The notes under the pieces are model-generated. The model was not told the DNA's origin and did no database searches. It saw only the letters and a program-made list of their open reading frames with translations. A stretch of 64,000 nt of DNA from Gordius albopunctatus (taxonomy: Eukaryota), in the NCBI GenBank assembly GCA_964276515.1, contig OZ193910.1, forward strand, positions 3,472,001-3,536,000, given 5' to 3'. Below, piece by piece: positions 14,482 to 55,920 of the stretch. Numbering within the stretch: position 1 is the first letter of the stretch; every line of letters starts with the position of its first letter. The translations under genes and the position numbers were made by a program.

Positions 14482-17400
14482 CTTCTTCTTCTTTCTATGG
14501 CTGCTTGTCACCTAGACTGGTGGTCAGTCCTTTCAGCATTCGTTTCCATTTGTTTCTATGTTTACATAGATCTTTCTTTATCTTGTAGACTTTCATATCA
14601 TGCCGTATTTTATGAATCCAGGTAAGTCGTCCCTTCTTTCGGCATGGCCATACCATCTTAGTCTATTTGTTAGGAGCTTTGTCGCAATTGATGGAGTACC
14701 CAAAATTCTTATTTCTTCATTTCGCCTATGGTCCTGTTTGCTTACACCTAGCACCCATCTTAGCATTCTCATCTCCATGGCCGCAAGACATTGCTCTTCT
14801 CTTTTAAGTATAGCCCATGATTCCGAGCTATACAAGACTGTTGGCTGTATGATGGATTTATACACGCCTTTTAGTCTTCTCGGGATGTTTTTGTCACACA
14901 GAACACCTGTCAAGTCCCTCCACTTGAGCCATCCGGAATTTATCCTTGCTTGTATTTCTTTATCCATTCCAGCATCCGATTGCAGTGTTGATCCTAAATA
15001 TTTGAAGGAATCCACGCCACGCTTGTAAGTTGCCAATCGCCTAAAGTAAGGGATGCACTTTGCTGGTTTTTATCCGATTTAAACTTTGTCTTCGTGTATT
15101 CTGTTTTCTTTCGATTTACCCTGAGACCACTATTCTCTATTGCATTTACCCATCTATTTACAGTATTAGCCAATTCTTGTTCACTTTTGGCACAGAGAAT
15201 TATATCGTCTGCAAAGATCATTGCCCAAGGAGCTTCCTCGCCCAAATCCTTGGTAATATTATCCATTATCATTATGAATAGGAAGGGACTAAGAGCTGAA
15301 CCTTGATGGACTCCAGTATTAATGGCGAAGCCCTTTGTAGTCCCCACCGTTGTTCTAACATATGTTCTATTTCCCTTCTACTTATCCTTTATTGCTCTGA
15401 CGTATGCTTCTGGCACATTGCTTTCTTCAAGACATTTCCAAACTAAATTACGAGGAACTTTATCGAACGCTTTTTCTAGATCGATGAAACACATGTGCAA
15501 ATCCTCTTCCCTTTCTTTAAACTGTTCCATTAATCTTCTAACACTGGTTAGGGCGTCTGCTGTAGACCTCTCCAGCATAAATCCGAATTGTTTATCTCGA
15601 ATTTGAACCATACTCCGAAGCCGTTTTTCGATCACTTTTTCCCACACCTTGAAAGTGTGACTCATAAGCTTTATCCCTCTGTAATTGTTGCAATCCTGAA
15701 TGTCCCCTTTCATCTTGTATATCGGGATCATGTAGCTATCCCTCCACTCGTCAGACATTTTACCCGTTTTCAAGACATTGTTGAAAAGGTTGGCGAGGAA
15801 TTGTGCACCAGTATTGCCTAACGCTTTAAAGCCCTCTATTGGTATATTGTCGGGTCCAAGAGCTTTTCCTGACTTTAGTTTACCCATAGCAACTTTCACT
15901 TCCGTTTCCGTGATCCAGTCCGCTGTGTTTAATTCTCCTATTGTGTTTTCCTGGTTATTGTCTTCGACTACAGGCCCATTTTCAATTGATAAATCGCTAT
16001 AATAGTCGTACCATCTTTGTAGTATATGGCTGTCGTGTGTTAGTATTTCTCCCTTTTGACCCTTGATTAGCCGGCATTCTAGGTAAATTTATAGAATTTC
16101 GGGCCCTTGACTTTGCGATTTTGTAGATCAATCTTTCTCCTTCCTTTGAGTTTAGTTTTAAATTTGTATCGTCGTATACCTTGTTTTTAGCTTTCGTTAC
16201 GAATTTTTTAGCCGATCTTTTAGCTACTTGGTAAGCTTGCTTATCATTACTATCCTTGCTTTTATACCATATTTGTACAATCTCTTCTTTTCCTTGATAC
16301 ATTTTTGCACTTCTTCATTCCACCACCACGTCTCCTTGAGAATTATTTTAGTTGGCTTGCTTTCACCTAGTGTTTGTCGTCCCGCTTTTCGCATTGTGGC
16401 AGCCATACCTTTCGATTGATCCTCACATGAAGTATTTTCCTTAAATTCAGCATGTTTAATTACTTGTTCTTTAAAATGTTGAATATTATCCTTTAGTTTC
16501 CTCCGTTGTATAGTAGCGGCTACTCTTTGTAACTTTTGCCCTTTAATATAAAGTCCATCACCAACAGCTTGTGTTGGCAGGCCAATATTTCACTCGGTAT
16601 TACCTTAACATTTTGAACATACTTTAAATGCGCTCTGTTGACTAGAAAGAAATCTATCTGAGTGGTACGGCTGCCGCTTTTGTACGTTCTAAGATGTTCC
16701 TGTCTTTTTTTGAATAAGGTATTTTCTTTTGCTAGGTTAAAAGATTGAGCAATTTCTAGAATTTCCGTTCCTCCTTCATTTCTTAGGCCGTAACCCCGAC
16801 CACCGTGATTTCTTTCAAATCCTCCCTTGATTTGCCCACGTGACCATTGAGGTTCGCTCCGATAATTATTATTCCCTCTTTACTGAATTGGGATAGAACA
16901 ACTTCAAGCTCCTTCCAAAAACACTCTTTTTCCGTCTCAGAGCATCCACTTTGAATGGCGTATGCTGATATAACGTTTATCGTAGTAGATTTATAACAAA
17001 GCTGTATCGCCATAATTCTGTCATTGATTCTTTTAACGTCGACGACAGTTGGCTGAAATTCTTCCGATAGCACTATACCGACGCCATTCCGGTGAGTTTC
17101 TGTACCGTAAAAATATAATTTGTATCCGTCCCCTATGTATTTTGCTTTTTGGCCTTTCCATTTGGTCTCTTGTATACACGCGATATCGATTTTTCTCTTC
17201 CTTAGAACGTCTGCCAATTCTCTGCTCTTGCTAGTCATTGTACCAATATTCCATGACCCAAACTTTATCCTACGCAAACTAATGTCTTTAACCGCTTCCG
17301 TTTGTTGAGAGAGCGGTAGTCTTCGCTTATTTCCCACACATTCCAGGCGAAGAATGCGCGTTTTCATTCTGCGTCTTTGTTGTAGTATACATTTTGGTTT

Positions 17401-17685
17401 ATATGGAATGAGGGAGTATTGATATCCCGGCCTTCCAAGCCTGACGGAACTATTCTTTATGATACAATCATTTTGGTGAATTAACCTAGCACCTCCATTC
17501 CACTAAGTACTCCCTCAAAAAGCCAAGAAATTTTAGTCTGACCCTTCACCAAGAAGCTTGCCAATAGGTTGACCCGACCAGTAACAAACATAAAAATTGT
17601 GTTTGACTACCAAAGGTATAGCTACTTGGACCACGAGAGTACACAAGCTCAACCACCACTACAAGGTATTTCTGGCTCGGTTGAG
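14482..17685 (-). mobile_element. Full-length but frameshifted RTE-clade LINE (APE endonuclease + RT)
   Basis: APE motifs (GSWNIGT, CIQETKW), RT motifs (FIDLEKAFD, HQGSALSP, FADD), (GAA)n 3' tail, and 15-bp TSD GTGTTTCTATAGTTT at 14467-14481 and 17686-17700. Confidence 0.93.
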
Positions 17686-18074
17686 GTGTTTCTATAGTTT
17701 ACCAAACTTAATTTAGGCTCGAGAGATGAATAAAAAATAATGGTGAATGCTCATTCTTTTGTTATAAAATATACACATCATTATACTCACCAATCTAAAA
17801 ATTAAAAAAAAGAATCACTTAATTTTGTAGAAAGCTTTAAAAATTGCTGTTATAATAAAAAATTAAAAACCAATTTAAACCAAATATTAAATTTAATTTA
17901 CAAATATATATGTATATTAAATACCCCATTGCCTTTTAAATATTTCAAAGCAAGAAATAATTTTATTATTTATCAATAAAAAGCTTAAGAAGATATTTGA
18001 GAGCTTTATTTTTAATTAAAATCATAAAAAATTAATTGGTAAATTTTATTGTGTATAGGTGCAATTATTGCTAT

Positions 18075-19188
18075 CTACCTGTAGTGGTGGATGAGCTTGT
18101 GTGCTCTCGTGATCCCAGGAGCTATACCCTAAATGCAATTTCGTTTTTACTGGCGGGGTCAACCTATTGGCAAGGTTTGGTAAAGAGGCAGACTCTAATG
18201 AAATAGACGTGCTAGATTTACCTAAAAATATGAGTTAGTCTAAACAAAAGTTAAATTCACCAAGATGCTGGCATCATAAGGAATAGTAGCTAGACAAACG
18301 CCCAAAAACAGGTGTGTCATATTGGAAAGCCGAGATATCAATATTCTCTCATTCCATGTTTACTACTACAAAGAAACAGGATGAAAACCAAGATAGGGCC
18401 TTTCCCTCAAGCGACGCGCCCGTTCTCTGCCTGGAATGTGTGGGAAATAAACGAAGACTGCTCTCTCCACAAACGGAAGCTATTAAAGACATTAGCTTGC
18501 GTAGGATCAAGTTTGGGTCCTGGAATATCGGTACAATGACAAGCAAGAGCAGAGAATTTGCTGATACGTTTAAAGGAGGAAAAAATCGATATTGCTTTAA
18601 GAGACCATATAAGTGAAATATATAGGTGACTGATACAAAACATATTTTATGGTCACAGAAACGCATCGGAATGGCGGTGGTGTAGTATTATCGAAAGAAT
18701 CAACAAGAACAAACAGTCGTCGACGTTAAAATAATCAATGACAGAATTATGGCGATTCAGTTGTGTTTTAAATCTTACGATCGTTGTATCAACATACGCC
18801 TTACAAAATAGTTACTCCGAGGTGGAAAAAAATTGTTTTCGAATAGAGCTGGAAGATACGCTATCTCAATTTGGTTAAGATGAGCTGATAGTTATTGGAG
18901 CGGACCTTAATGTCGTGGGTAAATCACGAGGAAGCTATGAAAGAAATCACGGTGGTCGGGGTTACGTAAGAACTTAAGGAAGTACGTAAATTTTAGAAAT
19001 ACCTTTTCCAAGAAGAGGCAGGAGCACCTTATTTTCTCACCAAGAGAACACACCTTAAGAATTTTCAAAATATAAAGGTAATACCAAGTAAAATATTGGC
19101 TTGCCAACACAAGCTGTTGGTGATAGACTATATATTAAAGGGCAAAAGGTACAAAGAGTAGCGGCTACAATAAAATGGAGAAGACTTA
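18075..19188 (+). mobile_element. Decayed 5' fragment of the same RTE family (5'UTR + APE)
   Basis: Peptide LECVGNKRR...RRIKFGSWNIGTMTSKSRE matches the 16783-17367 ORF; many stops and indels. Confidence 0.85.
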
Positions 19189-28137: not shown

Positions 28138-29985
28138 AAGGAAACGGCCTCTCAAATCTTGGGACGAACTAAGGGCGGCAGAGCTCGCAAGCGTGAACTA
28201 TGCTGGTGGAATGACTCGGTTAAAGAGGATATAGAAGAAAAGAAGGCGTTGTATCTACGATGGTACAAAACGAAGAAAGGAGAAGACTACGTGGCATATC
28301 GTAAAGCGAAACGCAAAGCTAAGATAGCGTTTGCGATAGCGAAGCAAAGATCAGGGAGAAAAAAAGTCGAGATGTCGGGACACTGAAAGTCATTAAAAGC
28401 GAAGAGGGACGAACGTTGTGCAAACCGAAGGAAGTCATCAAAAGATGGAAAGATTATTTCCAAAATATGATGAACAAAATGAATGATAGAAGACCGCAAG
28501 AGAGGGTGGAACCGAACTCGAACTTGGTTCTACCATTGCAGGCTTATGAATTAGGAGCGCAACTAACGAAGATGCGGAAAGGGAAAGCGCTAGGTCCCGA
28601 TAATTTACCGATCGAAGCTTGGCTTGGGTGCAAAGTAGAAGGAATCGACATAATGACAGGCCTATTTAACGCTATTCTGTATGAGAGTCGTATCCCTGAC
28701 CAATGGAGGGAAAGTACGATCATACCCATATACAAAGGCAAAGGAAACGCGCAGGAATGTGGCAACTTTAGAGGTATCAAGTTGACCTGCCACTCACTAA
28801 AACTACTAGAAAGGGTGCTAGTGAAAAGGCTCAATGACGAAGTCTGTCTCTCGCCCAATCAGTTTGGATTTGTGGCCGGTAAATCAACGATGGATCCAAT
28901 CTTTGCGTTGAAGCAGACGATGGAAAAATATGGTGACATAAGAAAGAACTTACACATGGTCTTCATCGATTTAGAAAAGGCCTACGATAGGGTTCCGAGA
29001 GAGTTAATATGGTGGTCCCTTAGAGCCAGAAATATACCCGAAGGATATGTTCGACTTATCAAGGAAATGTATAATGGTGCGGTTGCATCTGTTAGGACTA
29101 CCGTAGGAGAAACAAAACCCTTCCGAATAATGATCGGACTACATCAAGGGTCAGCGTTAAGCCTATTCGTGTTTAATCTAATTATGGATACAATAACAAA
29201 GGACTTGCACAAGCCAGCCCCTTGGACTATGCTATATGCCGACGATATTGTCCTATGCGATGAAACAAGAGAAGAGGTTTTTCATCAGGCGAAAAAATGG
29301 TCAGAACGTTTTTCGGAATTCGGGTTAAGACTCAGCGAGAAGAAAACGATTTACATGCAAACGATGGGCGGTAGTCCGCAAATGCACAAAAATGACGGTC
29401 CAATGTTCACATATCTTGGCTCGCTATACCGCCGAAGTCCATTCTCGGATCAAGAAAACATGGCTCAAGTGGCGCAGCATCTCCGGTGTCATGTGTGACA
29501 AGAAGATACCAATTTGGTTGAAAAGCAAGGCGTACAAAACCATCGTGCGACCGGTCTTGCTTTACGGGAGCGAAACATGGTCTGTAACCACCGCGGAGGA
29601 GAAACTCTTGCAAGTCACAGAAATGAGAATGGTGCGATGGAGCTTAGGCTACACCAAGCTGGATCGCATGACGAACGAATCCTTGATGACAAAGATGGGT
29701 ATACAAGCGACGAAGGACTTCTTAAGAGAAAATCGACTGCGGTGGTACGGCCATGTATTACGAAGAGACGAAGACGATGTCACACGCCAAACGCTGGAGA
29801 TGGACGTGCCTGGAAGAAGAGGAAGGGGCAGACCATGTGCCACCTGGAAACGACTGGTCGAAAAGGATATGGACGTCAAACAGATGGAAATTGGCATGGC
29901 ATTTACGCGACTCAGATGGAAGAGGCTGCTGAAAACGTACCCCACGTCTGTGGGATTTTCAACACGATAAAGAAGAAGAAGAAGA
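28138..29985 (+). mobile_element. 5'-truncated RTE LINE (RT), frameshifted
   Basis: RT motifs FIDLEKAYD, HQGSALS, YADD, RLRWYGHV; (AAG)n tail at ~29970-29985; same family as 62925-64000. Confidence 0.92.
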
Positions 29986-30370: not shown

Positions 30371-33030
30371 TGTAGATAAGGGGGAGAGGAATGTATTTAC
30401 AATTTTTTTATCCTAGCACATTTGTTTTTCAATTGTATACAAAATTAATTTATCCCTATCTTTTTAAATTGACAGATTACACCAGACTTGAAGTCGCTCT
30501 CCCTTCTCTTTAACACTAGGAATTAAGTGTTTTACTCTACAACTACCACTACATTAATACCACTGCTTTTCATAAATAATTTAACAATTTTGCCCCCCCC
30601 CCCCCATTTTTTTCCCCAGGTGATTTGCCCTCTCCCCTTTTACCCTCTCACTCACTCAGACCAAGGGGGCGGGCAGTCACCCCTACCCGGCCCCCTCTTG
30701 ATAAGTTATAGAGTAAAAAAATGGGTAGGGGGGGGGGGGGATCAACCCTCCCCCCCCCCCCACGCTCCCGTGCGAGGAAGAGGGTAAAAAAGGGTAGGGG
30801 CAAATCCCCCCCCCTTTGGGTGACGGATAGGGTGATAAGTGTAGAGAGGTAATAGGAGCGCGAAGTGCCTCCGGGATACGTTAGTTACCTGCGTGTTGTC
30901 GTTATTTACCTGTGTGTGGTCAATCAAAAATTATGATTAATTAGTTGTAACTTATATATGCGTTTGATATACACGTCTTACTCACTTACTATTTTCTTAC
31001 TATTGTGATATCCTTTCGTAACGTGTTTTTGAAGATTATTTCCCCGCTCCTAACAGTGGCATCGTGAAGCCTACGCGGAGATGCAGAAATATAAAACAAC
31101 GGCGAACATCGACGCTTTTATAACACAATTTGAGCTATTCCTAAGGAGCAATAAGACGGAGACAGATTAGTAAAAAGCAGCTCTATTATTAACCAGCCTG
31201 GATGTGGAGACATTCCAATTAATACTAGAGGATTATAGACCTCAAGAGTTGACAGGAATTACATATGAAGAAGCTAAAAATTGGTTAAGAAAATTATTCC
31301 AGAGGAATTCATGCGCGAGGGCGAAGATGTATGAATTCTCAAAGGTTCGACAAGGCCAGGGAGAGACGATAGACGCGTACGCTAATAGACTCAAGGCCGG
31401 AGCAAACAGCTGCAACTTCGGGAACGAAGAGTTACAGAACAGAATCGTCGACCAATTCATTATAGGATTGCGCGATAGAAGCTTAAAGGCGAGACTATTG
31501 GCAGAAAATGACATCCAATGGGACCGCCTACGGGAGCTGGCGGCAAAGCACCTGGCAGGACGGCCCGAAGAGGCGTGGAGCGTATTAGCGATACGAGAAG
31601 CGTGGCCTGAGCCGACCCAGATTCCCAGGTTAAACCATGCTTTATATGTGTTAACAGTAGATATATATATTAATAACGAGTTATTCCAATGCATCTTTGA
31701 TACGGGCGCGACGATCGCGATAATACAGGTGCAAAGATGGGCAAAGGAGATCCCACGCAATAAAGAGCCCGTCCCGATGGTGTACGCGTACGGCCACGAG
31801 GAAATAAAGATCGTAGCCAAGGTACAAGCCGATTTCCGAACGAGGAACACGAGGAAACAGCTGTTGTTATTATTAGCAGACGTAGCGGGGCCGCCGTTAT
31901 GCGGGATAGATTGGATCCAAGAATTCGAGCCCGAAATCTGGCGTCGGATACGTTGGAACTCGAGAGCTGCGGCGGACGGTTCGCGGTCAAATACATGGAA
32001 AGACCGAAGAATACCAAATCCGCGATCGAGCACTTGATGAAGCAATGGGATGGCAAGCTAAATGAATGTCCAAAAGCAGTCAAGGGAATAACAATGGAAG
32101 TGCCGTTAAAAGAAGGCATAAATCCCGTATTTATCCCCGCACGAAGGGTGCCGATGGCATGGAAGAAAGAAGTGGAAGAAGAGTTGGACAAATGGGTCAG
32201 AGGCGGAGTAATAGAACCAATCGGTTTTTCAAGATGGGCCAGTCCAGTGGTACCCGTAAAAAAAGCGATGGGAGCCTGCGATTATGTATAGATTACCGGT
32301 TTACGATAAATAAACACGCCCAAGGTTTGTTGTACCCCTTACCCAAAATCAACGATTTGTTAAATAAACTCGATAACGCGTGTTTTTTTTACGAAGCTGT
32401 ACCTAACGAAAGCGTACTTACAGCTGGAATTAAGGCCAGAGACGAGCCAACGATTGACTATCTCTACGCAAGGGCTTATTTAAAGTTAACCGGATGCCTT
32501 TTGGCTTAAATTGTGCCGCGGCGATTTTCCAAAAAACAATGGATCAAATATTAGAAGGCATAGAGGAGGTAGCGGTATACATCGACGATATACTAATTGC
32601 AGAGGAAACGGAAGAAATCTACAACGAGCGGTTACTCAAAGTACTAGAAACGTTACAAAAGTGGGGGTTCATGCCAAACATTGCCAAGAGCATATTGTGG
32701 GTAAAGGAAGTAACCTTTTTGGGATAGGTAATAAGTAACAAAGGGATTCAAATCAACAACAATAAAACCGAACTAGTCAAGCAGTGAAAGAATTTAACAA
32801 ACAAAAATGAAATACAATTGTTCCTTGGGTTAACAGCATATTTTTCAAAGTTCATTAAGGACTACGCCAAAATCGTGCACCAGATTCAGAAACTCGTGAA
32901 AAAAAACGTGATGTACCACTGGGGTGAAAAAAAACAAGGCGCATTTGAAGCCATCAAGTCCGCGCTTACGAAAGCCCTCCTACTGGCATACTTTAATGGA
33001 GATTGGGAGACGGGCCTGGTCGTAGAATAA
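30371..33030 (+). mobile_element. Truncated Ty3/Gypsy LTR retrotransposon (5' LTR, PBS, gag-protease-RT), degenerate
   Basis: Putative LTR end ...CTAACA followed by PBS TGGCATCGTG (~31057), Gag MHR-like RQGQGETIDAYANRL, protease FDTGA, RT WASPVVPV/MPFGL/YIDDIL. Breaks off before RNase H/integrase. 5' boundary uncertain. Confidence 0.85.
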
Positions 33031-33149
33031 TGGTTTAATATAGAAGAGTTCGATACGCGTGAATAAACGCCTCTAGCGAAAGTTTCTTACGAAACCGTAC
33101 CTAGGGGAATCCAGGATCGGGCCTAACCCGGTCCCGGATTTATTATTAT

Positions 33150-33269
33150 TATGCATCCAATGTATAAATACACCCGTCTGCCCTCCGGGTATCACTTGTC
33201 TTTTTTCCTACGTGACACCCTCCTCACCTTTTTCGCCCAACTTGTCCCCAAGACTTATTCCCTAAATTT
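33150..33269 (+). promoter_or_regulatory. 120-bp direct-repeat module with CCAAT, TATA and Inr (copies 33150-33269, 35923-36042, 36233-36352)
   Basis: CCAAT directly before TATAAATA (33163); Inr-like TCACTT with its A 31 nt downstream (33194), which is canonical Pol II spacing. Confidence 0.6.
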
Positions 33270-33280
33270 TTTGGTAGTGA

Positions 33281-33990
33281 ATGGTTAATACAAGGTCCCA
33301 AGACCACCATAATAGTTTCTTTTTGATTACACCTGAAACGTCTATGACTTCACCACCTACCAACACGAACTTAAGGGCTGGATCAGGCACCGACAACGTT
33401 GTAGAAGGGTTACTGGCAAGAATAGCCACTATGCAGGAAACGGCCGTAAACGCCCTAACAAGACAAGCTGAAGGACAGAGAGTACAAACTGAGGCCCTGC
33501 AGCAACTACTACAGCGGACATCGCTGGGGCCCACATCAACTGCTTCCACCCCAACACTGCCTCCCAACACTCAACAAGGGGGGCCCTCAACCCTCCAAAT
33601 TATGCCAGCGCCGGAGCCGCCGCGAACAATCGCCTCTGTGTTAGACGATATCAACCTGCACAAATCCTAGACCCCGACAACAAGGCGGCTAAGAGGGATA
33701 AACATGAGGCGAAATTCGCCATCCACTGCGCTAAACTCACCAGGATACCAAAGACTCTTGAAGAACTGATCCCCATAGATGATCAGCTCAAGAAAATGTG
33801 CCTGGCAATTAAGTTTAACTGGAAAACGGCTGCTTCACAGGACTCCGTATGACTTAAGGAAATGAGAATGCAAGACGTGGACGTCAAGAAGGACGCTCAG
33901 CGCCGACAGTTTTTTCCGAGAGCTGGCAGGGGCGGAAGCGCACCTAAGGGCCGCAACGTCAAAAAGGGCGCGGCCCCTGCCAAGGGTTAG
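33281..33990 (+). pseudogene. ORF1 (Gag/core-like) of the 3083-bp element; frameshift near 33655 and TGA near 33850
   Basis: MVNTRSQ..., a helical region, then in a shifted frame ...KRDKHEAKFAI...LAIKFNWKTA...RRQFFPRAGRGGSAPKGRNVKKG* with a basic RGG tail. Gag/core identity inferred from position and composition. Confidence 0.6.
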
Positions 33991-35915
33991 AAAGCGCCTC
34001 AACAAAGTTGCAGCAAAATGGGAGTTCGGGCCAAATGGCTTACCGACTCCCCACGGCGATTCGAATATAGTTTCCCCTATGTGGCTTAAAAGTGTTTTTC
34101 ACTTTCTTAGGGAAACGCGACGTATAATCTTTTCGCCACCCAACGATGACGGACCGCTGCTGCCGGACACTCCGCCGTCTACTCCGCCGCCACATACCGA
34201 CTCCCCGCCATTACCTACCGAGTTGGAACAGCGCCTCGCTGACTCCGAGCCATCCCTCGTCCGGGACGCGGGATCGGGACAAATCCGATCCCTAATACAA
34301 GCGCACAAAGTGTTCTTCGGCTGGAGCAAAGCGACTTCCTCCGCTAAACCCAATGGCGTACTCGACATTCGTACCTCACGCTTAATACCGCACGAGCTCA
34401 TGTCGCCGTTTAGCAGGAAGGTAGCCACAAAAGGCTACAAAGCCTTTCTAGATGCGTACAACATCAGACTTAATGGAGGACTGATACAGCCCCCCAAGTC
34501 GAAAAGATACTCGAAAGGCTCCCCGGCCTTCTTCACCGAAATGATACGGGCAGGAATCGTTTCAAGAGCGGCGAAACTCCTAATCCGATCTGCCACCTTC
34601 TTTATAGCAAAACCTAATGGGGACGCAAGGGTAATTACCGATCTTTCGCATGCATCTAGGAATTTCGTCCCCAAACCTATGAAGTTGGCAAATATACCGC
34701 TTACAGCCAAACATCTTGCGGCAGCGCGATGGGCCGCGAAAATCGATTTCAAGGCCGCCTTCTTCTCTATACCAATCCACCAGAGCACGAGAAAATACTT
34801 GGGATACGTATGGCGGAGGAAGCCCTTCGAATACAACGTGCTCCCCATGGGGACCTCTTTCTCTCCCTTCGTGCTCCAAATGATAGTGAGCGACTTGGCT
34901 AAGAAAGCCGTGAAACGATCCAAGTATAACGTTTACCTGGACGATCTGCTGATATATAGCGACAAATACGACAACGTCCAGGAAGACCTGGAGGACCTGG
35001 CCGACCTCGCCAAAGCATGGGGTCTTACAATAAATGTAGCCAAGTCCTCGATTATGCCGACTCAACGCATCGAGTACCTAGGCATGGAACTCAAACTCGA
35101 CGTCTCGGCAATTAAGTACAAACAAGGCACTGCTGACCGACTACAAATCGTGGCAGATATCCTCTTCCTCGGCACTAACACGTGATGTCCCGATCAACAC
35201 GCTGCTTGAGGCGCTCGGCATTCTTAATTACTTCTTTTACAATTTAACAGGCATGTCCAAGTTGTTTTCCAGCTTCTATAGCCTCACAAGAAGCGACCCC
35301 CAGTGGTTAGATAGGAACTTAGCAGCTAATAAACTCATGGCGATTCTAAAGCTAACACACGAGACCATACCGCTCTGGGTTAAATCATCCAACATCGTAT
35401 ACGTTGACGCCTCGGGAACACACATAGGGATAATGGATAGCTACGGGTGGCACTCAAACAGCTTCGTAAATGCGGCGGCGTCCTTCTGATGGCGATGGAG
35501 AGAACCGTATCACATCACCCTATCCGAGACAGTAGCGGTTCTGTATGGCTAAGTTCGCTCTTTCCTCAGCGGCCACAATCACCCTAAACTAATAAACGAC
35601 TCAGCTACGGCATACTACGTCCTCAAAAAAGGGGGATCAAACTCTCCTATCATCGAGGAAGTAATAGCAACGTTCGTTAAAACGTACGGCGTCAAGCACC
35701 TGCTCAACATACACTTTAACCTATCATGGATACCGACACACCTCAACCCGGCCGACAAACCATCCCGACAATGGGCACCTGACACACCGGATAGCGAACT
35801 ATCAAACACGGATATTGACTACGTCCTTCAACACGGACTCCCGAATGACGATGACATAGACCTGGCTTTTTGGGAAAACGAAATACCGGTCGAAATAGTC
35901 GATCTAGAACCATAA
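33866..35915 (+). pseudogene. ORF2: reverse transcriptase + RNase H; frameshift near 35175, stops near 35487 and 35550
   Basis: RT motifs FFIAKPNGDARVITDLSHASR, KIDFKAAF, LPMGTSFSPF, YLDD, IEYLGM; thumb LLEALGILNY. RNase H tetrad VDASG / HITLSET / INDS / WIPTHLNPADKPSR read by eye. Frame is open from 33866 and ends TAA 35913-35915. Confidence 0.88.
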
Positions 35916-37386
35916 CAAACCCTATGCATCCAATGTATAAATACACCCGTCTGCCCTCCGGGTATCACTTGTCTTTTTTCCTACGTGACACCCTCCTCAC
36001 CTTTTTCGCCCAACTTGTCCCCAAGCCTTATTCCCTAAATTTCGTTTTTACCACACACTTACGCGCATTTATTCACTTATACGCGATCTCGCTTTACGCA
36101 CGCTTATAATTTTTATATTTTATTGTGCTGCTTCGATACGCGTGAATAAACGCCTCTAGCGAAAGTTTCTTACGAAACCGTACCTAGGGGAATCCAGGAT
36201 CGGGCCTAACCCGGTCCCGGATTTATTATTATTATGCATCCAATGTATAAATACACCCGTCTGCCCTCCGGGTATCACTTGTCATTTTTCCTACGTGACA
36301 CCCCCCTCACCTTTTTCGCCCAACTTGTCCCCAAGACTTATTCCCTAAATTTTTTGGTAGTGAATGGTTAATACAAGGTCCCAAGACCACCATAATAGTT
36401 TCTTTTTGATTACACCTGAAACGTCTATGACTTCACCACCTACCAACACGAACTTAAGGGCTGGATCAGGCACCGACAACGTTGTAGAAGGGTTACTGGC
36501 AAGAATAGCCACTATGCAGGAAACGGCCGTAAACGCCCTAACAAGACAAGCTGAAGGACAGAGAGTACAAACTGAGGCCCTGCAGCAACTACTACAGCGG
36601 ACATCGCTGGGGCCCACATCAACTGCTTCCACCCCAACACTGCCTCCCAACACTCAACAAGGGGGGCCCTCAACCCTCCAAATTATGCCAGCGCCGGAGC
36701 CGCCGCGAACAATCGCCTCTGTGTTAGACGATATCAACCTGCACAAATCCTAGACCCCGACAACAAGGCGGCTAAGAGGGATAAACATGAGGCGAAATTC
36801 GCCATCCACTGCGCTAAACTCACCAGGATACCAAAGACTCTTGAAGAACTGATCCCCATAGATGATCAGCTCAAGAAAATGTGCCTGGCAATTAAGTTTA
36901 ACTGGAAAACGGCTGCTTCACAGGACTCCGTATGACTTAAGGAAATGAGAATGCAAGACGTGGACGTCAAGAAGGACGCTCAGCGCCGACAGTTTTTTCC
37001 GAGAGCTGGCAGGGGCGGAAGCGCACCTAAGGGCCGCAACGTCAAAAAGGGCGCGGCCCCTGCCAAGGGTTAGAAAGCGCCTCAACAAAGTTGCAGCAAA
37101 ATGGGAGTTCGGGCCAAATGGCTTACCGACTCCCCACGGCGATTCGAATATAGTTTCCCCTATGTGGCTTAAAAGTGTTTTTCACTTTCTTAGGGAAACG
37201 CGACGTATAATCTTTTCGCCACCCAACGATGACGGACCGCTGCTGCCGGACACTCCGCCGTCTACTCCGCCGCCACATACCGACTCCCCGCCATCACCTA
37301 CCGAGTTGGAACAGCGCCTCGCTGACTCCGAGCCATCCCTAGTTTCGGCGAGTTGTTAGGGCACCGAACGCTACTAGATTTCAGAT

Positions 37387-37560
37387 GGTGCCCTATCAGC
37401 TCGCCGAAAACAATCTCGCCGAAATTAATGTCCCCCAGTTAAAAAAAGGTCCCCTAATTTAAAATCGTCCCCCATTCAACCAATCACAAAACGGGGGACC
37501 TTTTTTAACTGGGTGACATTAAATTCGGCGATATTGTTTTCGGCAAGTTGACGGGCCACC
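37387..37560. mobile_element. Palindromic Mutator-like MITE
   Basis: ~70-bp TIRs (GGTGCCCTATCAGCTCGCCGAAAAC... / ...GTTTTCGGCAAGTTGACGGGCCACC) and 9-bp TSD ATTTCAGAT (37378-37386, 37561-37569). Solo ends at 37342-37365 and ~1285-1307. Confidence 0.8.
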
Positions 37561-45007: not shown

Positions 45008-47190
45008 TACCTACGACGGTCCCAAGTCCGTGTGGAAAAAGTGGAGGGTTGGCGTCAGGTCGGAAACCGGCTATAAAAATCAACTCCAAAATGTATGATA
45101 GTTTCAAACGAGATTTTACAAGAAAAGGCTAGGGCGTCGTCCACAAACGACGCGCACTGCATACCCCGCCCGTGCAATGTGAAAAATACACTAGGGTTAC
45201 TGCCCAACTCACAACGAAGGCGTTTAAGGAAACTAGCTGTGGAAAGAATGCGAATTACGTGCTGGAATGTGGGAACGTTGACGGGGAAGAGCATCGAGGT
45301 CGCACAGATGTTAAAAATAAGAAAGGTACACATCGCCTGCCTACAAGAGACGAGGTGTAACGGAACGAAAGCTAGGGAATTAGGAGAAGGATACAAGCTT
45401 TTCTACAGTGGGTCACCAAATCGTAGAAACGGGGTCGGCATCGTTCTAAGCGAATCGTTCAAGGACAAGGTGGTGGAAGTCAAACGTTGTTCCGACAGAC
45501 TAATGTGGGTGAAGATTGCGGATCAAGGGGGCCTCCTAACCGTTATGTGCGCGTATGCTCCCCAAATTGGGTGTTCGGAATCAGAGAAAGACATATTCTT
45601 CGAATCATTGGAAAAGGAAATACAAGAAATCCGACAGGAAGAAAGGCTAATTATTGGGGCCAATTTCAACGTTCACGTAGGAAAAGATCGCCTCGGGTAT
45701 GAACGCAATCCTGGAGGCTATGGGCATGGTCTGAAGAACAAAGAAGGGGAAAAACTTCTCCAAGTATCCCAAGCATATGACATGGCGATCGTTAACACCT
45801 ATTTTCAAAAGTGCGAAGATCCTATTGTGACCTTTAGAAGTGGGAAGCATTTTAGTCAAATCGAGTATTTGCTTATACGGCGAAAGGACTTATTGAGTAT
45901 CAAAGATTGCAAAGTAATACCGGGAGAAGAAATCGCCAGGCAACATCGTCCCCTTGTTATGGATCTTGACAGAAGAGTATTTGCCGAAAGAAGAAAGGTA
46001 TATGAACCTCGAATTCGATACGAAAGGCTAAAGGATACGTCGACGAACGAAGAATACCATCAAAAAGCCTCCTCACTCTTGGGTGCAAGGAAGTTGCAAA
46101 GGGACGTAGACGAAGATTGGGAAACGCTATCTAAGGACATTAAGGAAACAGCGATTCGTGTTCTAAGACAGACCAAAGGAGGCAAAGCTATGAATAGGGA
46201 ACTATGGTGGTGGGATAAATCGGTTAAAGATTTCATCGAAATAAAGAAAAATCTATATAGACGGTGGCATAAATTAAAAAAGTCGGAGGATTATCAAGAG
46301 TACAGGGACGCAAAGAGGGCCGCAAAAAAGGCCGTTGCAAAAGCGAAGAATGCTGCGTACACCGAGATGGCAAACAAACTGGATCATAAAGGGGGCGATA
46401 GGCTTATGTACAAATTGGCCAAGATAAGGGAGAAGAAAAGTCGAGATGTCGGAGTTCTTAAAATAGTCAAAAGCGAGAAGGGTCAAACCTTATTCAAGCC
46501 AAAGGAAGTGATGGAAAGGTGGAAAGGATATTTTAAGAAACTTATGAATATTGCAAATGACAAGGATTCCCTTCCCGAAATTGAGCCAAATATAAGTATG
46601 GTCGAACTCTTTCAGAAAGATGAGGTTAGGACACAAATGAACAAGATGCAAAAAGGAAAAGCAAATGGCCCAGATGGAATACCTATGGAAGCATTGCTCG
46701 AATGTCGTGAAGAAGGAGTCACCACCATGACGAACCTCCTTAACAAGATATTGGTAGATGAGCGAATCCCTAATCAATGGAGTGCAAGCACGATTATACC
46801 CTTATTCAAAGGAAAAGGAGACCCTCAGGACTGCGGCAATTACAGAGGTATCAAGCTAACTTGCCACTCCTTGAAGCTTTTGGAAAGGATCTTAGTAACA
46901 AGGCTGAAAAATGAGGTGGAAATATCGGCTAATCAATTCGGATTCGTGGCCGGCAAATCCACAATCGACCCAATCTTCGCCCTAAGACAAATGATGGATA
47001 AGTATGGTGAAAAGAGGAAAGACCTACATATGATTTTTATCGACTTGGAGAAAGCTTATAACACGGTCCCCCGCGATTTAATATGGTGGTGCCTGAGGAA
47101 ATAAAATATCCCTGACGCATATATACGGCTTATGAAAAATATCTATGAAGCCTCAAACTCTTGCGTTAGGACGACAGTTGGAGACTCTAT
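45008..47190 (+). mobile_element. 3'-truncated RTE LINE (5'UTR, APE, N-terminal RT)
   Basis: 669-aa ORF with TCWNVGTL, CLQETR, AYAPQ, NYRGIKL, FIDLEKAY; stops before the YADD motif. Confidence 0.92.
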
Positions 47191-48079
47191 CTTTAGAGTC
47201 CTTTACTAGTTTATCAAAAAGCAGCGTGGAAATTTTGAGCCCACAGGCACATATTTATACCATGACTATAACATTATACTCAACAACTTAATTAGAAATA
47301 AAGAAACTGTTAAGCAATGAGTAACTCTTATATAGAAGGAATACCCTAGAGCTCCCTCGTATATAGGCTTAAACTTTAGTAATGATTCTATCCCGTCTAA
47401 ATTTTGATCCTGCGAGTCAGGCTCTACTTAAATTGTTCGGACTAGTCAACCCCCACCCCCCCCACCCCCCACAGTCCTGAATACTCTTCTTTAGACATTA
47501 TCGGTATATGCCTATCTATACTATTTTCAAGGCTCTTACCCCCTTCCACACAACAAGCCACGTCGCTCGCAGGGGATTTAGGCGTCATGTAAGGTATATG
47601 CATGTGCATGTTGTTTCAATGTGAGAATTTTCGTTGCAACAACATAATCGAGATATTTAAGCTTCCCCCCTCCCGCATTAACTCCCACGACCCTGCTACT
47701 CCTATAATACCCTGGTAATTTCTTTCCTTCGGAAAAATTATTATATGTGAAGGGACTAAGTTAACTACTCACTCCCCACATATGTCTTCGTTAATACTTC
47801 ATCTCGTCAGCTCTACTTATATGAGCTTTGATTAAGACCCACTTACCCCCAAATCAAACCCAGGTCATTCAAGCCGCTAAGTACTTTAATCGTCATGTGT
47901 TTTCGGCTAGCCTCGCTCTTAAAAAAGATTTGAAACCGTTCAATTAATACTTCGTCATAATATTGGGCTAGGGCTCGTAGTCTGCATATCGACACCTCAA
48001 AATATATTAATTTAAGAAAGGTTCAACTCATCAGATCATAATTTCTGCCCCTACCGCGTCCTCACCAACTTAACAGCTA

Positions 48080-50961
48080 ATGAAGATCAAAATAGCTTAT
48101 ATAAATATCAATTCCCTTATGATCCAAGGCAAACAACAGATGATGCTAACATATGCAAGAAAGCATAAACTCGACATCCTTTGTCTACAGCAGACGTGGA
48201 TTCCTCATTCTAGGATCGACAGCAGCTCAGAGTACACCCTTTACCACGTGGGTTTTACAGATAATCCAGCAACAGGGGTTTCGACTTTCATAAATAAACG
48301 TCTTCCCGTTCTGAGTTTCGACTGGGTAAATGAAAGAATTCTTATAATCAATCTAACAATAGGGGTACGTGTGTTGTCGGTGATAAATGTTTATGCCCCT
48401 ACATCCTCCTACAAAACTAAGGTTATTAACGAATTTTTCAGTCTTCTCTTTGACAAAATCAAAGAATTAAGCCGCAAGTCGGTGCCAATTATAATTGGCG
48501 ACTTGAATTCATCCGTCGGGCGCACTGACCGTGACAACTATAATTTAATAGGCCCTAACACCCTAGGCTCCAACAACAAAAATGGTATTATTCTAAAAAA
48601 ATGGTGCAATATGGGAAATTGGCGAATTTCTTCAACTTTCTCAGATCTTCCCTATAATCGGCTGGCCACCTTCCGGAAAAAAAACAACTTGCAATCAAGC
48701 CAAATAGACCATCTGATCTGTAGGGCAAGACATCTAAAAATATTCAAAAACTTTCATGTAATCGTGGACCCCCTCACCGATGACGCCGACCATTGTGCAA
48801 TAGCCGCTGAACTAGTGCTGAAAGCAGCCACCCTACGTGTTCCTTCGAAACGCAAACCCCCCTAAATAAGGCCCCAAGGTCTGTCCCAAACCACTGAATT
48901 TAGGGACCACCTTCACCTAAAAATCCAAAATAGCAATCTCTCCGACCTGTCGATAAACGACCACAGCATAAAAATATCTGAAATATTTACAATTCCCTTG
49001 AAAGACCAGTGTCGAATTAGAACAAAGACATGGTTTTCAGAAAAAACAATTTGGCTCCTCAAGACAAAATCTAACATCTACTGTGATAGAAATGAGTTTC
49101 CTTTCAAAAACGCATGCTTATCCGCTCTCAGCAAGCGGATTAAATCCAGCATCAGACAAGATAAAATTGCGTTTATTAAAGCAAAAACCACAGAGGCCGA
49201 AGAGGCAGCACGTTCCAATAACAATCACCAGCTATTTACCATTCTAGACAGCCTTAACTATAACACATTCTCCAAACGAGCCTACAATAGCATAAGCACA
49301 GTTGGCGGCTCAAACGACTCCTTGGCCCAAACCAAACCTTGTGAAGACCATTTTCGTTCAATTTTATCGGCCCAGCCCGTATTTCCTGTAGTGGATATAT
49401 ACAGAGGATTTATCGTTAACTTCAAAGGCCCACCACCCCTCCACATCGATTTGGACCTACCCTATTTATCTGAAATTGACAGAGCTATCAAGTCACTCAA
49501 ATTCCACACAGCGGCCGATCCGTCAGGCCTAACCTCGGAAGCACTCAAAGCCGACCCCCTTATCTCTAGCTCTCTTTTGCACCACTTGTTTCGGAAAGTT
49601 TGGACGAAAGAGGTAATGCCGGACTCCTGGACAATAGGTCACTTGATCAAACTTTTCAAAAAAGGTGATCCATCCAATCCCAACAACTACCGGGGCGTGA
49701 CTATCATTAACCTTGAATCAAAATATTCATCAAGGTTATTTACAACCGAATTTACAGCGAGGTGGATGAAATAATTAAAAACAATCAAACTGGTTTTAGG
49801 AAGTGCCGTACGACGACAGAGCACATAATAACTTTAAGGAACATAATGGATATTTCACGGACAAGCGGTTCCCCCCTGGTTCTTGTGTTTTTAGACATCG
49901 CTAAAGCTTTTGATTCGCTGTGCCATCTATAAATTTGGGAAGCACTATGCCTCTTAGGCTTGCCTAAGAAAATAATTCTCATGATCTTTCTACTCTACGA
50001 AAACATGAAACTAGTTATCTCCCACCTCCACTACAAATCGGAACCCTTACCAGTAACATCTGGTGTCAGGCAAGGTTGTCCGCTGTCCCCTCTCCTCTTT
50101 ATAATTGCGATGGATCTAATAATGAAGAGATCCACACTTCCGACAGATGGTATCAAACTAAACGGCACTACTCTATCATCCCTGTTGTTCGCAGACGACA
50201 TTTGTCTAGTGGCCCCTTCTATCTCCAAAGCACAACTAATGTTAGACAGGTTCAGCATCCAAGCCAAGCAAGCAGGACTGCTTATAAACCCTGACAAATG
50301 CTCAATGATATGCATAAACGATCCTTCGAACTCTACTCTGGTAATCAACAACATCGTAATAAATGCATCTCAAAAAGTCCGATATTTGGGAGTGGAGCTT
50401 ACTCCAGATACCTACGCCGAAGCGGATGCCGAATCGAAGCTCCGCCGGACCATGGTCAAATTCTACTCTTGCTCGGTGATATGGCGCTCACGTCAACTGA
50501 CGCTCCAGACGCGTTTGAGGATTTTCAAAGTCACGATCCTACCAATCCTCCTATACGGTTGCGAATCTTGGTCGCTGAAGGCTCCTAGCTTAAAGAAACT
50601 GCAAGTCAGTCTTAATAAAATGCTACGTATCGTTTGTCGGATATTTTATCCGTTGAGAATAACCAACGAGGATCTATGGGTGCGTTGCAAAATCGCTCCA
50701 ATTAAAAATATTCTACTCGCGAGAAAATGGGGTTTTTTGGCTCATCAAGTGCGGAGGAAGGGAACCAACTACTGTCTATCTTACCTGTTCTGGTGTCCAC
50801 CTCCGCTAAAAGGTCGCAAATGCAATGGCAGCTGGCTTTACAAGGTGTTCCGCGATGTCCAAACAATGGGTCATGATTGGAATTCATTGCTGCCCATCAT
50901 GCAAGAGAGGAAACGTTGGAAAGACTTCTCAAAGAACAAATTATTGTGGCTCCCCCAGTAA
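48080..50961 (+). mobile_element. APE-RT non-LTR retrotransposon ORF (RTE-X/CR1-like; clade uncertain), disrupted
   Basis: APE motifs YININSL, LCLQQTW, VYAP, GDLN, QIDH, ADH; RT motifs NYRGVT, RQGCPLSP, FADD, LLYGCESW; stops and frameshifts. Confidence 0.9.
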
Positions 50962-53028
50962 GGATCTTCTCACGCACTATTCATTTACTACCTTGCATTA
51001 AAGGCTTTACATTACTTTCAAGTCAACAGGTATTACATATTTACATGTCATAATTACACTGCATGTTAATCATTTTTTTACAGCCTACTTACACACGTTA
51101 TCACTAACGTGGCCTGATGAACTTCCCATCGCATCTTATGCAGAGTAAGGTTTCTTATAAAAAGCTAAGTGACCTTTTCCCTTTTAAAATAAATAACCCT
51201 TATTTCTAACTTTTTATTTTTCTCTCCCTCCTGTTGAAATAAAAGATAGCCTGATGCATGAGACCACCCACTAGTTAAATTGCCCTCCCTCCCTCGTATA
51301 TGTAATAATACTTGTTCCTGAAAATTGTAAGAGTGCTAGCAGATCTACGTATAATAACGTCTCATATTTGCCTGGCGCCGTCGTTCTAAAAATAAACTCT
51401 TGTGCTTCCATCATACTAGTAATGGTGTTAATGCTGTTACCCCTGACCCCGCCCCCTTTACCCTCCGCGTCTATTTCTCACCAAATTTATTATTCCCCTT
51501 ATCGCTTGCCTGTTTTGTTATTTATCTGGCTCTGCCGTTCATACTCTGAACTTCCAGAATATCATTATATGGCGAAGCATGCGAGCGCAGTGCAGTCGGA
51601 AATGCAACCCCCCCCTGACAATCCTTTATTTATAATATTATACTATAGTTATATAAAATGGTGTATCAATTTATTTTTGTATTGATCATAAGTTTATTAT
51701 TTCTTTAACTACCTATTTTCCTAAAAACTTAAGTGAACTTACAATATATATAACGTCAAACAACGTGTGTTTTTTTCTGACCACCTTTTTACAAGTTTTT
51801 GCAACCTATAAATCAGTCATTTTTAAAGATTTGTTTTGCAAATTAGTTGTCAATTTTAAATAAAGGGCTAGGCAAGCCTTTCTCTTGTTATTTATCTTTA
51901 ATTTATTTATTTGATTAACCATTAAATTATCATATTCTTCCTTCTGTCTATATTTTTTTTTTCACCATACTCAAATTTTTATATCAAACTTATTTTCAAA
52001 ATTATAATTAATTATTTGATCATATTTAATCAATTTTAGTGCTTAATATCAAATTTAGGTAAGCCTTCCAGTATTAACTTTTATTCAATATCTGAGCTTC
52101 CGTATTACTTATAATTTATTTCTCTGTATGAAGTTTAAATTCGCATTGGATAGTAGTCTAGGGCCTAGATAGGCGTCGTCAATTCAAATATATCAAGGTA
52201 TGGACTTACCCCTTCCCCACACATTTCTAAAAAAAAAATATACGTTATTCTTACTAATATTCCTTCTCAATGGGTGGTCCTGACTTTATATCTCTCCCTC
52301 CTACCACTTACCCCCCCCCCCCTATTCTAACGACGAAATTAACTGCGAGCTCAAGACGAAAATGCTACTAATGTTGTATAAGACACTCACTTGGGAGGTG
52401 TATGCTTTACTTTTACCCCCCACCCCCTCCTCTTCTAGGGTATTCGATATGTGCAAAACAAGGAATAGATACTCTAACTTATTATTCTCCCCTTATCGCT
52501 CCCGGAAGATTTCTGGCGGCACTACCGTCAATACCCAACTATGAAATTAAAAATAAGTCGGAAAAAGATGGGCTCCCCCTTATAAATAATATATTTGCCC
52601 ACCCCTCTACAAATAAGAGGTAGTTATTTATAACCAGTAATCAATTTTCCCGAACAAATACTTGCTAAAATGCTATAATATATAAAATACAAGGCCGGTG
52701 ACCCTCACCTCCCGCTCCCCTCTGGAGCGACTCTATTTTTAAACTAATATATTTTCTACTGATCAAATGCTTCCGGAATTGATATCGCTTAAATACTAGT
52801 TTACTCTAAAAATAAGAGTGAAGCAGATTGACCCCCTCCCCCCATTAAAAGGAAAGTTAACCTCTACCCCTCTACAAAAATGGTCTTATTTATAACCAGT
52901 AATTCATCTACGAACTCACTTCTAATATATTAACAATATACAAAACACAACTACTATTAAGTTTTAAAATTCGTTACTAAATCCGTCTCATTCCACCCCA
53001 ACTTTTAATCCCTTATACTCAAATTAAA

Positions 53029-55920
53029 ATGATCCTAAAATTGGCTTCACTCAATACTCAAACCTTAAGAGAACCAGGAACGCTACAGAGCCTTACTTTA
53101 TTTGCCTCCCACCACAGAATTCATATTCTTTGTGTTCAGCAAACAAGATATTCACATCGCAAAGTTCTCCCCATTAACGACTATAATTGCTATTGCACGG
53201 AATGCGGCCTTGAGACTGCATCAGGGGTAGCCATTTTTATAAAAAAGGAACTCAAAGTGATTAGCATCGACTATGTTAACAACAGATTATTAATCATTCA
53301 CTTAAAAATAAAAAAGCGTTGTTTATCAATTTTTAACATATACGCTCCCCCCTCTTCCAAAAATTCTCAATCGATGGAATCCCTCCTCCAAAACATCAAA
53401 GTTAAATTTAACACTAAACACCTTAAAATCCTCGTCGGTGACTTCAATGCTTCCGTCCAGCGCACACTGGGGGATAATAAATTAATAATTGGCCCAAACT
53501 CAATTGGACCGACTAACCGAAACGGTAAACTACTTAAAAAATTCTGCTGTAAACATAAACTAAAGATAACCTCAACCTTTTCCGACCTTCCTCTGGATAA
53601 CCTAATCACATACCAAAAGAATGAAAATCACCGAGGTACCCAAATTGATCATATAATAGGCCAACTAAGAAACCACAAAATGATAAAGAACTTCCAAACC
53701 TTTCAGCCTCTAATAAAAACAGATCACTTTGTCATCTCAGCTGATCTCTTTATTAATCCCTCCTCTCTCCACACGTCAAAAAAACTTAAAAATACCCATC
53801 TCGAGCAAACATAATCAGAGACATCTCTCAACTTGAGTCCAGATTACAAACAGACTCGAAGGCACTTGGCGATCTTGCCCCCCTCACAGTCAATGACCAC
53901 AATGACACCTTAGCACAGTTTTTCACTCCATCCCAGAATGACCATCTCCATGTCAACATTAAGTCCTGGTTCTCCATCGATACCATTTATCTACTCGAGT
54001 CCCGGTATAAAGTCTTTAAGGATAAGACACTTAGAAATAAAAAAGCATGGGTCCAACATCTCACTAAAAAGATTAAAGCGGCAATAAAAAAGGACAAGGC
54101 TAATTACTTATCAAGCAAACTAAATGAAGCAGAATCTGCTGCTCGCACAAACAGTACACACACCCTTTACAAAGTGCTCAGGAACATCACCGCAAAATTT
54201 TCAGACAAATATAACTACAATACAAAACAAACATAGCTCCAACGATTCCTTGATCCAAACGGAGGCTTGGGAGAGCCACTTTAGTTCCATTCTAGATCGC
54301 CCTTATTCAATCCCCTGTTCCGACATATTCCTTGAATTTATTAACAACTTCAAAACACCCTCCACCCCTTCTATCAGTGTTGAACCACCCTCCTTAAATG
54401 AAATAAAATACGTGTTAAAATCCCTCAAACTTCATAAAGCTCCCGATGCAGAAAAAATCACAGCGGAAGCCCTTAAAGCTGATTACTCCCTGTCTAGCAA
54501 ACTATTGCATCAACTCTTCACTAAAATCTGGCTACAAGAGATCATCCCCCGCGCTTGGTCTACTGGTCTACTTAGTAAAATCTATAAAAAAGGAGACCCA
54601 TCACTTCCCGATAATTATAGAGGGATCACAATTATAAATAACATTTTCAAGGTTTTTATAAAATTAATATATAGGAGGATATATCCATTCATTGACGATA
54701 ATTTAAAAAGTAACCAAGCCGGCTTCCGTAAGTCCAAAACCACAATTGAACACATCCTTACCATCAAAAATATTATTGACATCTCTAAATCTAAATCTCC
54801 TTTAGTCCTAACATTTGTTGACATTCATAAAGCTTTCGACTCCCTATCCCACCTTTACATATGGGAATCTTTATGTCTACTAGGAATCCCCAAAAAAATT
54901 ATTAGACTTATCTTCTTTCTGTACAAAGACATGAAAGTGGTCATAAAACATCTACACCACCGCTCAAACCCAATCCAAGTCAATTTAGGAGTTAGACAGG
55001 GATGTCCATTATCTCCTCTACTATTCATCACGGCAATGGATCTCATAATTAGGAGATCCACCCTTCCTTACGACGGTATCCACATGAACGGCATCAAAGT
55101 GTCTTCACTGCTATTTGCTGACGATTTATGCATCATATCGGATTCAACTCTCAAAACTCAGAACTTTGCCGATAGATTCGTCTTAGAATCCAAGAAAGCC
55201 GGTTTAATAATTAACCCTAACAAGACTAACTTACTATCTATTAACATACCCTCCCAAAATACTACATTGTCTATTAGCAACACTTTAATCCCTTTTTCAG
55301 ATTCAATAAACTACTTAGGAGTTCTTCTTTCTCTAGACAAATACTCCCACCAAGATGCCTCTAATAAATTATCTAAAGCTCTAAAGAGTTTTTATTCATG
55401 CTATTCAATCTGGAAATCCAACGAACTGGCTCTACCGACCCGCCTTCGGCTGTTAAAAACCACCATATTGCCTATATTCCTCTATGGATGCGAAACATGG
55501 TCCCTAAAAGGTTCGACCATAAAAGCGGCCCAAACTAAACTAAATAAAATGCTCAGAATAATTTGTAAAATATTCTACCCTGAGGTAATTAGCAATCCAA
55601 ACCTCTGGACCCTTTGCGAAATCCCTCCCATAAAAAACATAATTATATCACGGAAATGGAACTTCCTAGCCCACCAGACCAGACGCAATGGACTCAACAT
55701 TTGCTTAAGAGCAATTCTATGGAGACCCCCTCAACTAAAAAAACTAAAATGTCGAGGTTCCTGGATCTACAAAACTTTTTTGGAACTCCGCTCTCATAAC
55801 CACGAATGGAATACTATAATCCCCATAATGCAAAACAGATCCGCTTGGAAAGCCTTTTCTGCCTCCAATTTCCCTTCAAAATATCCCCTCCCAATCGCCT
55901 CAACTTCGAGCTGTCTCTGA
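53029..55920 (+). mobile_element. Second, diverged APE-RT element of the same family, disrupted
   Basis: SLNTQTL, LCVQQTR, IYAP, GDFN, QIDH, TDH; RT NYRGIT, DIHKAFD, RQGCPLSP, FADD; collinear with 48080-50961. Confidence 0.9.

Follow-up and report, generated by a model that had tools for sequence, protein, structure and literature searches.

A broken copy of a reverse-transcribing element with a doubled promoter-like module in Gordius albopunctatus, and its probable kinship with HEART retroelements

Introduction

How does an element that encodes a reverse transcriptase (RT) and no recognizable integration enzyme copy itself, and why does it keep two near-identical promoter-like modules on either side of a spacer with a polyadenylation signal? 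These questions are raised by a locus in a 64,000-nt stretch of the Gordius albopunctatus genome (assembly GCA_964276515.1, contig OZ193910.1, forward-strand positions 3,472,001 to 3,536,000), hereafter the window, in whose coordinates all positions are given. The original prediction, made from the letters of this stretch, had proposed a pregenome-like layout that yields a longer-than-unit, terminally redundant RNA as in hepadnaviruses. Such a doubled promoter-like module would give a testable model for the spread of poorly understood elements, and in the unit found at this locus, which is young and nearly complete, promoter, poly(A) and repeat signals can all be read.

Results

The locus is a broken chromosomal copy of a reverse-transcribing element. 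By self-comparison, the insert (4,292 bp) contains a 3,083-bp unit 1.39 times over, head to tail, with 36132-37340 repeating 33049-34257 at 3 mismatches, and one turn reads X-ORF1-pol-X-Y, exactly the order originally noted, where X is a 120-bp module and Y a 190-bp spacer (36043-36232). The features are the following.

31060-33026, plus strand: left flank, relic of a Ty3/Gypsy element (gag, protease, RT, RNase H) truncated within RNase H where the insert lies
33049-37340, plus strand: whole insert, 1.39 turns
33150-33269, plus strand: X1, ORF1-proximal copy of the module
33272-33286, plus strand: primer-site look-alike 2 nt after X1 (a weak lead), also at 36355-36369 after X3
33281-33990, plus strand: ORF1, no family match
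33866-35915, plus strand: pol, RT then RNase H (RVT_1, 4e-25)
35923-36042, plus strand: X2, 7 nt past the pol stop, predicted genomic-RNA start
36043-36131, plus strand: Y 5' half, rich in T and differing between copies
36154-36224, plus strand: Y 3' half, two predicted hairpins
36233-36352, plus strand: X3, predicted promoter of an ORF1/pol mRNA
36364-37340, plus strand: ORF1 again, broken at the same places, then the beginning of a second pol up to the cut at 37340
37342-37560, no strand assigned: right flank, palindromic MITE-like element of high copy number, directly next to the insert's cut end

The left end of the insert lies inside Y and the right end inside the start of pol, neither of them in X, and no target-site duplication was seen at 33049-37340. 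The integrase half of the Ty3/Gypsy relic had no match within the window, and the 22 nt between this relic and the insert (33027-33048) were assigned no origin; their derivation from the unit was rejected, as 223 of 300 shuffles matched equally well. A longer-than-unit insert with ends in unrelated places and no integration enzyme would most simply be explained as circular or concatemeric DNA captured by host repair. Linear DNA of HBV is described, in the accessible part of the literature, as being taken up into chromosomes by host repair.

Elsewhere in the window, a multi-exon host gene, which we take to be SEL1L-like and a sign of an animal host, occupies 1482-12000, and a 285-bp inverted repeat of 99.6% identity (7848-8132/8559-8843), possibly a young DNA transposon, lies within its region. 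LINE-type RT/endonuclease copies are found at 14593-19000, 28344-29979, 45095-55920 and 62926-64000, two of them 93% identical and in opposite orientation, and the host gene lies among LINE and Gypsy relics. Short ends related to the MITE-like element of the right flank are present at 1281-1310.

Both reading frames are broken. ORF1 changes frame near 33660-33670 and has a stop at 33850-33852, while pol, whose first ATG is at 34079 and whose frame overlaps the end of ORF1, changes frame near 35165-35190 and has stops at 35487-35489 and 35550-35552. The ORF1 pieces gave no Pfam match above the cut-off, and the C-terminus is basic, with 11 K/R among the last 34 residues. The part of pol that precedes the RT is short and DIRS-like, and no match to the terminal protein (PF00242) was seen in the pol N-terminus or in the relatives. 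Tblastn searches with the tyrosine recombinase (YR)/Dam and integrase parts of two matches found neither YR, Dam nor integrase in the window, where the RT control was recovered, and the unit leaves no room for a YR. Protease, movement protein and capsid zinc-knuckle gave no match for the unit, and none of the 6 other frames (0/6) showed a family at E<0.1.

The RT active-site motif is YLDD. The RNase H ends in NPADxPSR, a motif also present in four DIRS-side proteins and one Gypsy-side protein and hence not exclusive, and its comparison with PF00336, the C-terminus of hepadnaviral Pol, gave an E of 0.026, which falls below the cut-off. By eye, the RT has a PF-x-(L/M)-Q-M stretch and its general style in common with 7 Ixodes HEART rows, and the RT signatures of Blubervirales (LVxKN, RLVVDFSQFS, SDG, YMDD), likewise judged by eye against the accessible part of Data Set S6 of PMC12691608, were not found. 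A single-sequence fold was unusable (pLDDT 35).

A protein search returned 12,054 matches at E<0.001, of which three were far ahead (E 1e-38 to 1e-45; next 1e-25) and most of the 150 best were DIRS-like. The closest relatives, at 39-43% identity, are unnamed proteins of the horsehair worm Gordionus sp., namely the top three and 8 found later, located on 4 chromosome-size contigs. No relatives were found in viral or metagenome contigs, and a further candidate locus (L001) proved to be a Gypsy element.

A FastTree tree of 206 rows was restricted to stored proteins covering >110 aligned columns of the RT; in it, the window and Gordionus sequences belong to a group of 17 rows that is separate from the bulk of DIRS-like sequences (SH 94). 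An IQ-TREE analysis of 54 rows, which we picked from the 206 and which held no HEART or hepadnavirus reference rows, united window and Gordionus (100/99) and placed this clade as sister to 11 HEART-like rows with a support of 86/88 (not starred); the window RT was not on the Gypsy side of the tree. Forcing window and Gordionus into DIRS was rejected (p-AU 0.012), with groups that had been named after the first tree. The PF00336 cut-off was passed by 3 of the 10 proteins scanned among the 11 HEART-like sister rows, vs 0 of 22 on the DIRS side, and the relatives P0025, P0026 and P0178, all from Gordionus, and P0180 had no match to this family. Dam matches, weak or strong, were present in 8 of 22 DIRS-side proteins vs 0 of 4 Gordionus proteins.

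A fold model of P0025 (pLDDT 90) had its best TM-scores, among the 50 matches listed, with an unnamed 634-aa entry (0.62) and HBV P (0.60, 0.58), and scored no higher than 0.55 with the caulimovirids among them; by E-value, the caulimovirid RTs rank above the named HBV P. A PDB fold search gave general RT matches only, and no identity was found for entry A0A3S9H6R8. By the features tested, the element is not a hepadnavirus, a nackednavirus, a DIRS-order or an LTR element; judging from its sequence, it is likely of HEART grade next to the hepadnaviruses, and it probably stands near HEART and works as HEART do.

Six unnamed metagenomic RT/RNase H proteins (P0104, P0188, P0049, P0173, P0196 and P0158) have a hepadnavirus-like RNase H and mostly come from contigs of 1.4-3.8 kb; they possibly point to a wider undescribed HEART-like group.

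The three copies of X differ at 1 (X1/X2), 2 (X1/X3) and 3 (X2/X3) of their 120 sites. This repeat is not due to chance, because in 200 shuffles of the unit exact repeats never exceeded 14 nt, and besides X a search for short DR1/DR2 found in the unit only chance-level 11-12-mers. The module agrees in its parts with what had been proposed: X2, which begins 7 nt after the end of the pol stop (35915), contains CCAAT at 35930, TATAAATA at 35936 and, at the canonical distance of 31 nt from the TATA, an Inr-like A (35967). We infer from these motifs a putative TATA/Inr promoter. A CCAAT 1 nt from the TATA is atypical spacing. A 45-codon upstream ORF (36234-36371) begins in X3 and overlaps the first ORF1 ATG.

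In Y, the predicted AATAAA (36145-36150) lies 178 nt from 35967 and, as also foreseen, in a predicted stem, where it forms part of the right arm of a 12-bp inverted repeat (36065-36076/36142-36153) whose left arm is in the Y 5' half (pairing 0.90-0.99; region z = -5.0). The sequence upstream of this signal is T-rich (43%), and there is no T-rich tract downstream. The Y 3' half, with predicted hairpins at 36154-36189 and 36190-36224, is the most structured of the 120-nt segments of the unit (z -5.3, 32 segments). On the minus strand the unit has 3 AATAAA (36068, 36119 and 36222), every one of them in Y, a number reached in 1 of 2,000 base shuffles of Y, and Y may act as terminator of transcripts on both strands. 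The hexamer alone proves nothing, because three more plus-strand copies lie inside pol. None of the 5 Rfam matches at E<10 reached its gathering threshold.

The unit contains neither inverted terminal repeats nor an internal complementary region, in line with the claim that it is not DIRS-like in this respect. The claim that it is not an LTR element stood as far as TG..CA ends on X and a purine tract before X2 are concerned, both of which are absent; the only purine run found (35625-35636) was discarded as a polypurine tract (PPT), being chance-level and coding. What did not stand is the statement that no primer-binding site (PBS) is visible, since the look-alike site after X1 and X3 matches, in its first 6 and last 6 nt, the 18-nt initiator-Met PBS (as given in the accessible part of PMC1797187). 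Its predicted duplex has -14.9 vs -34 kcal/mol, it ranks 4th of 41 TGG sites, the TGG of one diverged copy contains an additional base, and the chance count of 0.03 makes the pattern look stronger than it is, because the pattern was fitted after the sequence was seen. We consider the site a weak lead towards host initiator tRNA as primer, in a caulimovirus-like manner.

Contigs of two DNA runs also hold the unit; both runs belong to one study, which may be the source of the window itself. Flanks had depths of 385-482 in one run and 175 in the other, single X contigs reached 24,292 and 3,568, and the pol contigs most like the window copy were near flank depth, which suggests tens of diverged copies, depth being no copy number. 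The expectation that X-Y-X would recur in other copies was borne out in part. X-end-to-Y joins were found in 3 contigs like the window copy (2+1) and in 3 whose Y 5' half has been exchanged for other sequence (1+2), and diverged copies also show the pol-end-to-X join and X-to-ORF1 contigs; one of them differs at 35 of 293 sites over X and the start of ORF1, vs 1-3 of 120 among the window X copies. What speaks against it is that no contig among those listed covers all of X-Y-X and that minor copies skip one X: in one variant Y is joined straight to 33315, without X3, and in another 33505 is joined straight to Y, each seen in one contig per run at about single-copy depth. The Y 5' half is shallower than the Y 3' half, whose depth equals that of ORF1.

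At the MITE end, unlike flanks were seen in 28+16 and 29+18 contigs (44 and 47), vs at most 4 at any position of the element, among the 12 of 76 and 12 of 261 loose ends listed; this is a weak hint that the element has no fixed integration end. In one run (run X1), a 1,418-nt contig near single-copy depth matches window 35145-35642; the 921 bases that precede 35145 in it are unrelated or diverged, and it could be another insertion end or a subfamily.

Discussion

The reading that we tentatively prefer, to which we give a little less than an even chance, is that the element would multiply as a circle in the manner of pararetroviruses, with a genomic RNA that begins in X2, runs past Y for a full turn and stops when it meets Y again. 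An RNA started at 35967 would measure ~3.29 kb with a terminal redundancy of ~200 nt, the AATAAA near the cap being skipped on the first pass and used on the second. Since the upstream ORF in the long leader overlaps the first ORF1 ATG, a separate ORF1/pol mRNA would be required, and X3 would drive it. Reverse transcription would jump across the redundancy, restoring the X-Y-X circle and keeping the X copies alike, and entry into chromosomes would take place via host break repair. Only an RNA that begins in X2 and stops in Y on the next turn would contain the whole of X-Y-X plus the redundancy, whereas one running from X3 to Y would lead to a circle without Y. A primer would be needed because no terminal protein was detected, a finding that also speaks against hepadnaviral priming, and host initiator tRNA is a faint candidate.

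Of the two features originally linked to the skipping of AATAAA, cap distance and the stem, the stem has to be abandoned: with both arms located 3' of the proposed start, it would be present on the first pass as well as the second and gives no means of choosing between them, a task that must fall to cap proximity. Hepadna- and caulimoviruses skip a poly(A) signal by cap proximity, for which our literature search found no published support. In favor of the circle are the insert ends in Y and pol rather than in X, the lack of YR, Dam and integrase matches, the HEART-leaning RT and the recurrent X-Y joins. Against it count the stem on both passes, the missing downstream T-rich tract and the three pol AATAAA to be passed; the X3-less and ORF1-to-Y contigs of both runs, the shallower Y 5' half and the absence of an X-Y-X span among the contigs listed; and the weak PF00336 match of the window, the 86/88 support and the rank of caulimovirid RTs above HBV P by E-value. 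The pregenome-like interpretation is plausible, though not unique, and a terminally redundant RNA would be the simplest way to keep X-Y-X.

It had been claimed that the layout does not fit the Ngaro pattern, and this exclusion does not hold, because an element with split direct repeats (A1-ORFs-B1-A2-spacer-B2), in a circle or tandem, also reads ORFs-X-Y-X, and VIPER has a spacer, of ~30 bp between A2 and B2 in T. cruzi according to the accessible literature. X would then be B+A of a Ngaro/PAT/VIPER-type element that uses a recombinase-less mechanism: a unit-length RNA would start at the X3 Inr, read through X2 and the stem-hidden AATAAA and end at the equivalent position in the next X, with TATAAA, CA and a GT/T-rich tract as 3' signal and a T-rich upstream at X3 only, and internal X2 would bridge the cDNA ends in the circle. 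This would give the stem a job and agrees with a T fraction before TATAAA of 0.40 at X3 vs 0.17 at X2; in the accessible literature, moreover, the RNase H of VIPER groups with hepadnaviruses, and DR2 and DR1 of nackednaviruses are placed as X2 and X3 are. However, there is no YR, the insert does not end in X, the RT lies outside DIRS, one X must be read through while a near-identical one is used, and, as a weaker point, the contig loose ends listed show no fixed end; we therefore deem it rather unlikely. A recombinase could also have been lost, the locus being a dead DIRS-type remnant duplicated locally in the chromosome, as the DIRS-like majority of the best 150 matches and the breaks of both ORFs, common to both ORF1 copies, might suggest. 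With a distinct clade, a large score gap (3 matches at E<1e-37, next 1e-25), Dam in none of the 4 Gordionus proteins vs 8 of 22 on the DIRS side, and relatives spread over 4 chromosome-size Gordionus contigs, this appears highly improbable.

Two other readings were weighed. The second X may be incidental, duplicated by template switching or repair within a single sub-lineage, in a unit with one basic promoter and with Y as just a (bidirectional) terminator, which would suit the X3-less or ORF1-to-Y contigs in 2 of 2 runs, the near identity of the X copies and the location of all 3 minus-strand AATAAA in Y. Those variants, however, are only at about single-copy depth, and pol-end-to-X, X-to-Y and X-to-ORF1 joins are all present in diverged copies, which makes this distinctly unlikely. 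Alternatively, the X copies might be non-canonical LTRs of an integrase-less, tRNA-primed X-ORF1-pol-X element, Y being an array spacer spread by unequal crossing-over. The PBS look-alike 2 nt after X1/X3 and the position of X2 directly 3' of pol fit, but the purine tract and TG..CA are lacking, the duplex is poor and its site ranks only 4th, the TGG of one diverged copy is interrupted, and Y would go uncopied, yet its 3' half is as deep as ORF1; we regard it as very unlikely.

A broader idea can be formulated, which we consider doubtful: that horsehair-worm-type hosts harbor a lineage of integrase-less, terminal-protein-less pararetrovirus precursors, in which the X pair would be an intermediate between the split direct repeats of retrotransposons with a recombinase and the hepadnaviral DR2/DR1, a 3.1-kb circle would arise from pregenome-like RNA, priming (possibly by initiator tRNA) would predate protein priming, and ORF1 would be a proto-core.

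Comparison with known systems

HEART retroelements were reportedly described by Gong and Han in 2018. To our knowledge they are without integrase, YR, terminal protein or envelope, and none of the four was detected in the window element. In the accessible parts of PMC12691608 and PMC12440569, HEART are chromosomal RT/RNase H elements of invertebrates that stand between DIRS and Blubervirales; the former proposes them as retroelement ancestors of hepatitis B-like viruses, and the latter states their mode of movement as unresolved. Like the 7 Ixodes HEART rows, the window RT has the PF-x-(L/M)-Q-M stretch; it differs from them in YLDD vs (H/Y)(L/I)DN and in its host lineage, and in displaying a full unit with X-Y-X.

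With Blubervirales (hepadnaviruses, nackednaviruses and proto-nackednaviruses) the element shares a ~3.1-kb unit, a basic-tailed ORF overlapping pol, the lack of integrase, the RNase H end NPADxPSR, repeats at the end of pol and before ORF1, and a predicted terminal redundancy. It differs in having neither a terminal protein match nor the RT signatures of that group, in repeats of 120 bp vs 11-14 nt and in tens of chromosomal copies; as to the core, ORF1 offers its basic tail and no Pfam match above the cut-off. Ngaro/PAT/VIPER elements resemble it in a gag-like ORF followed by RT/RNase H and in X-Y-X as circle or tandem, and differ by YR and Dam, by ends that in the window are not in X and by an RT that in the window falls outside DIRS. 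Caulimoviridae, in the accessible literature, have an integrase-less circle, and their tRNA priming would fit the look-alike site, but the unit has no protease, movement or zinc-knuckle match, its RT is not Gypsy-side and its host is an animal. From LTR retrotransposons it is set apart by the lack of integrase, protease, TG..CA LTRs and PPT.

These comparisons draw further on the accessible parts of PMC11551314, PMC6681497, PMC7192593, PMC5604429, PMC8812780, PMC10033635 and PMC12241316 and of the preprints bioRxiv 2022.02.16.480762, 2024.06.11.598342 and 2026.05.21.726589. A survey of nematomorph transposable elements reported DIRS only in a mermithid nematode, and our literature searches found neither such an element in Nematomorpha nor the X-Y-X layout, although the original HEART paper or Repbase may already describe similar termini. 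Together with its multi-copy sister family in the chromosome-level assembly of Gordionus, the window unit turns the movement of HEART into a matter of simple tests on RNA ends, circles and copy junctions.
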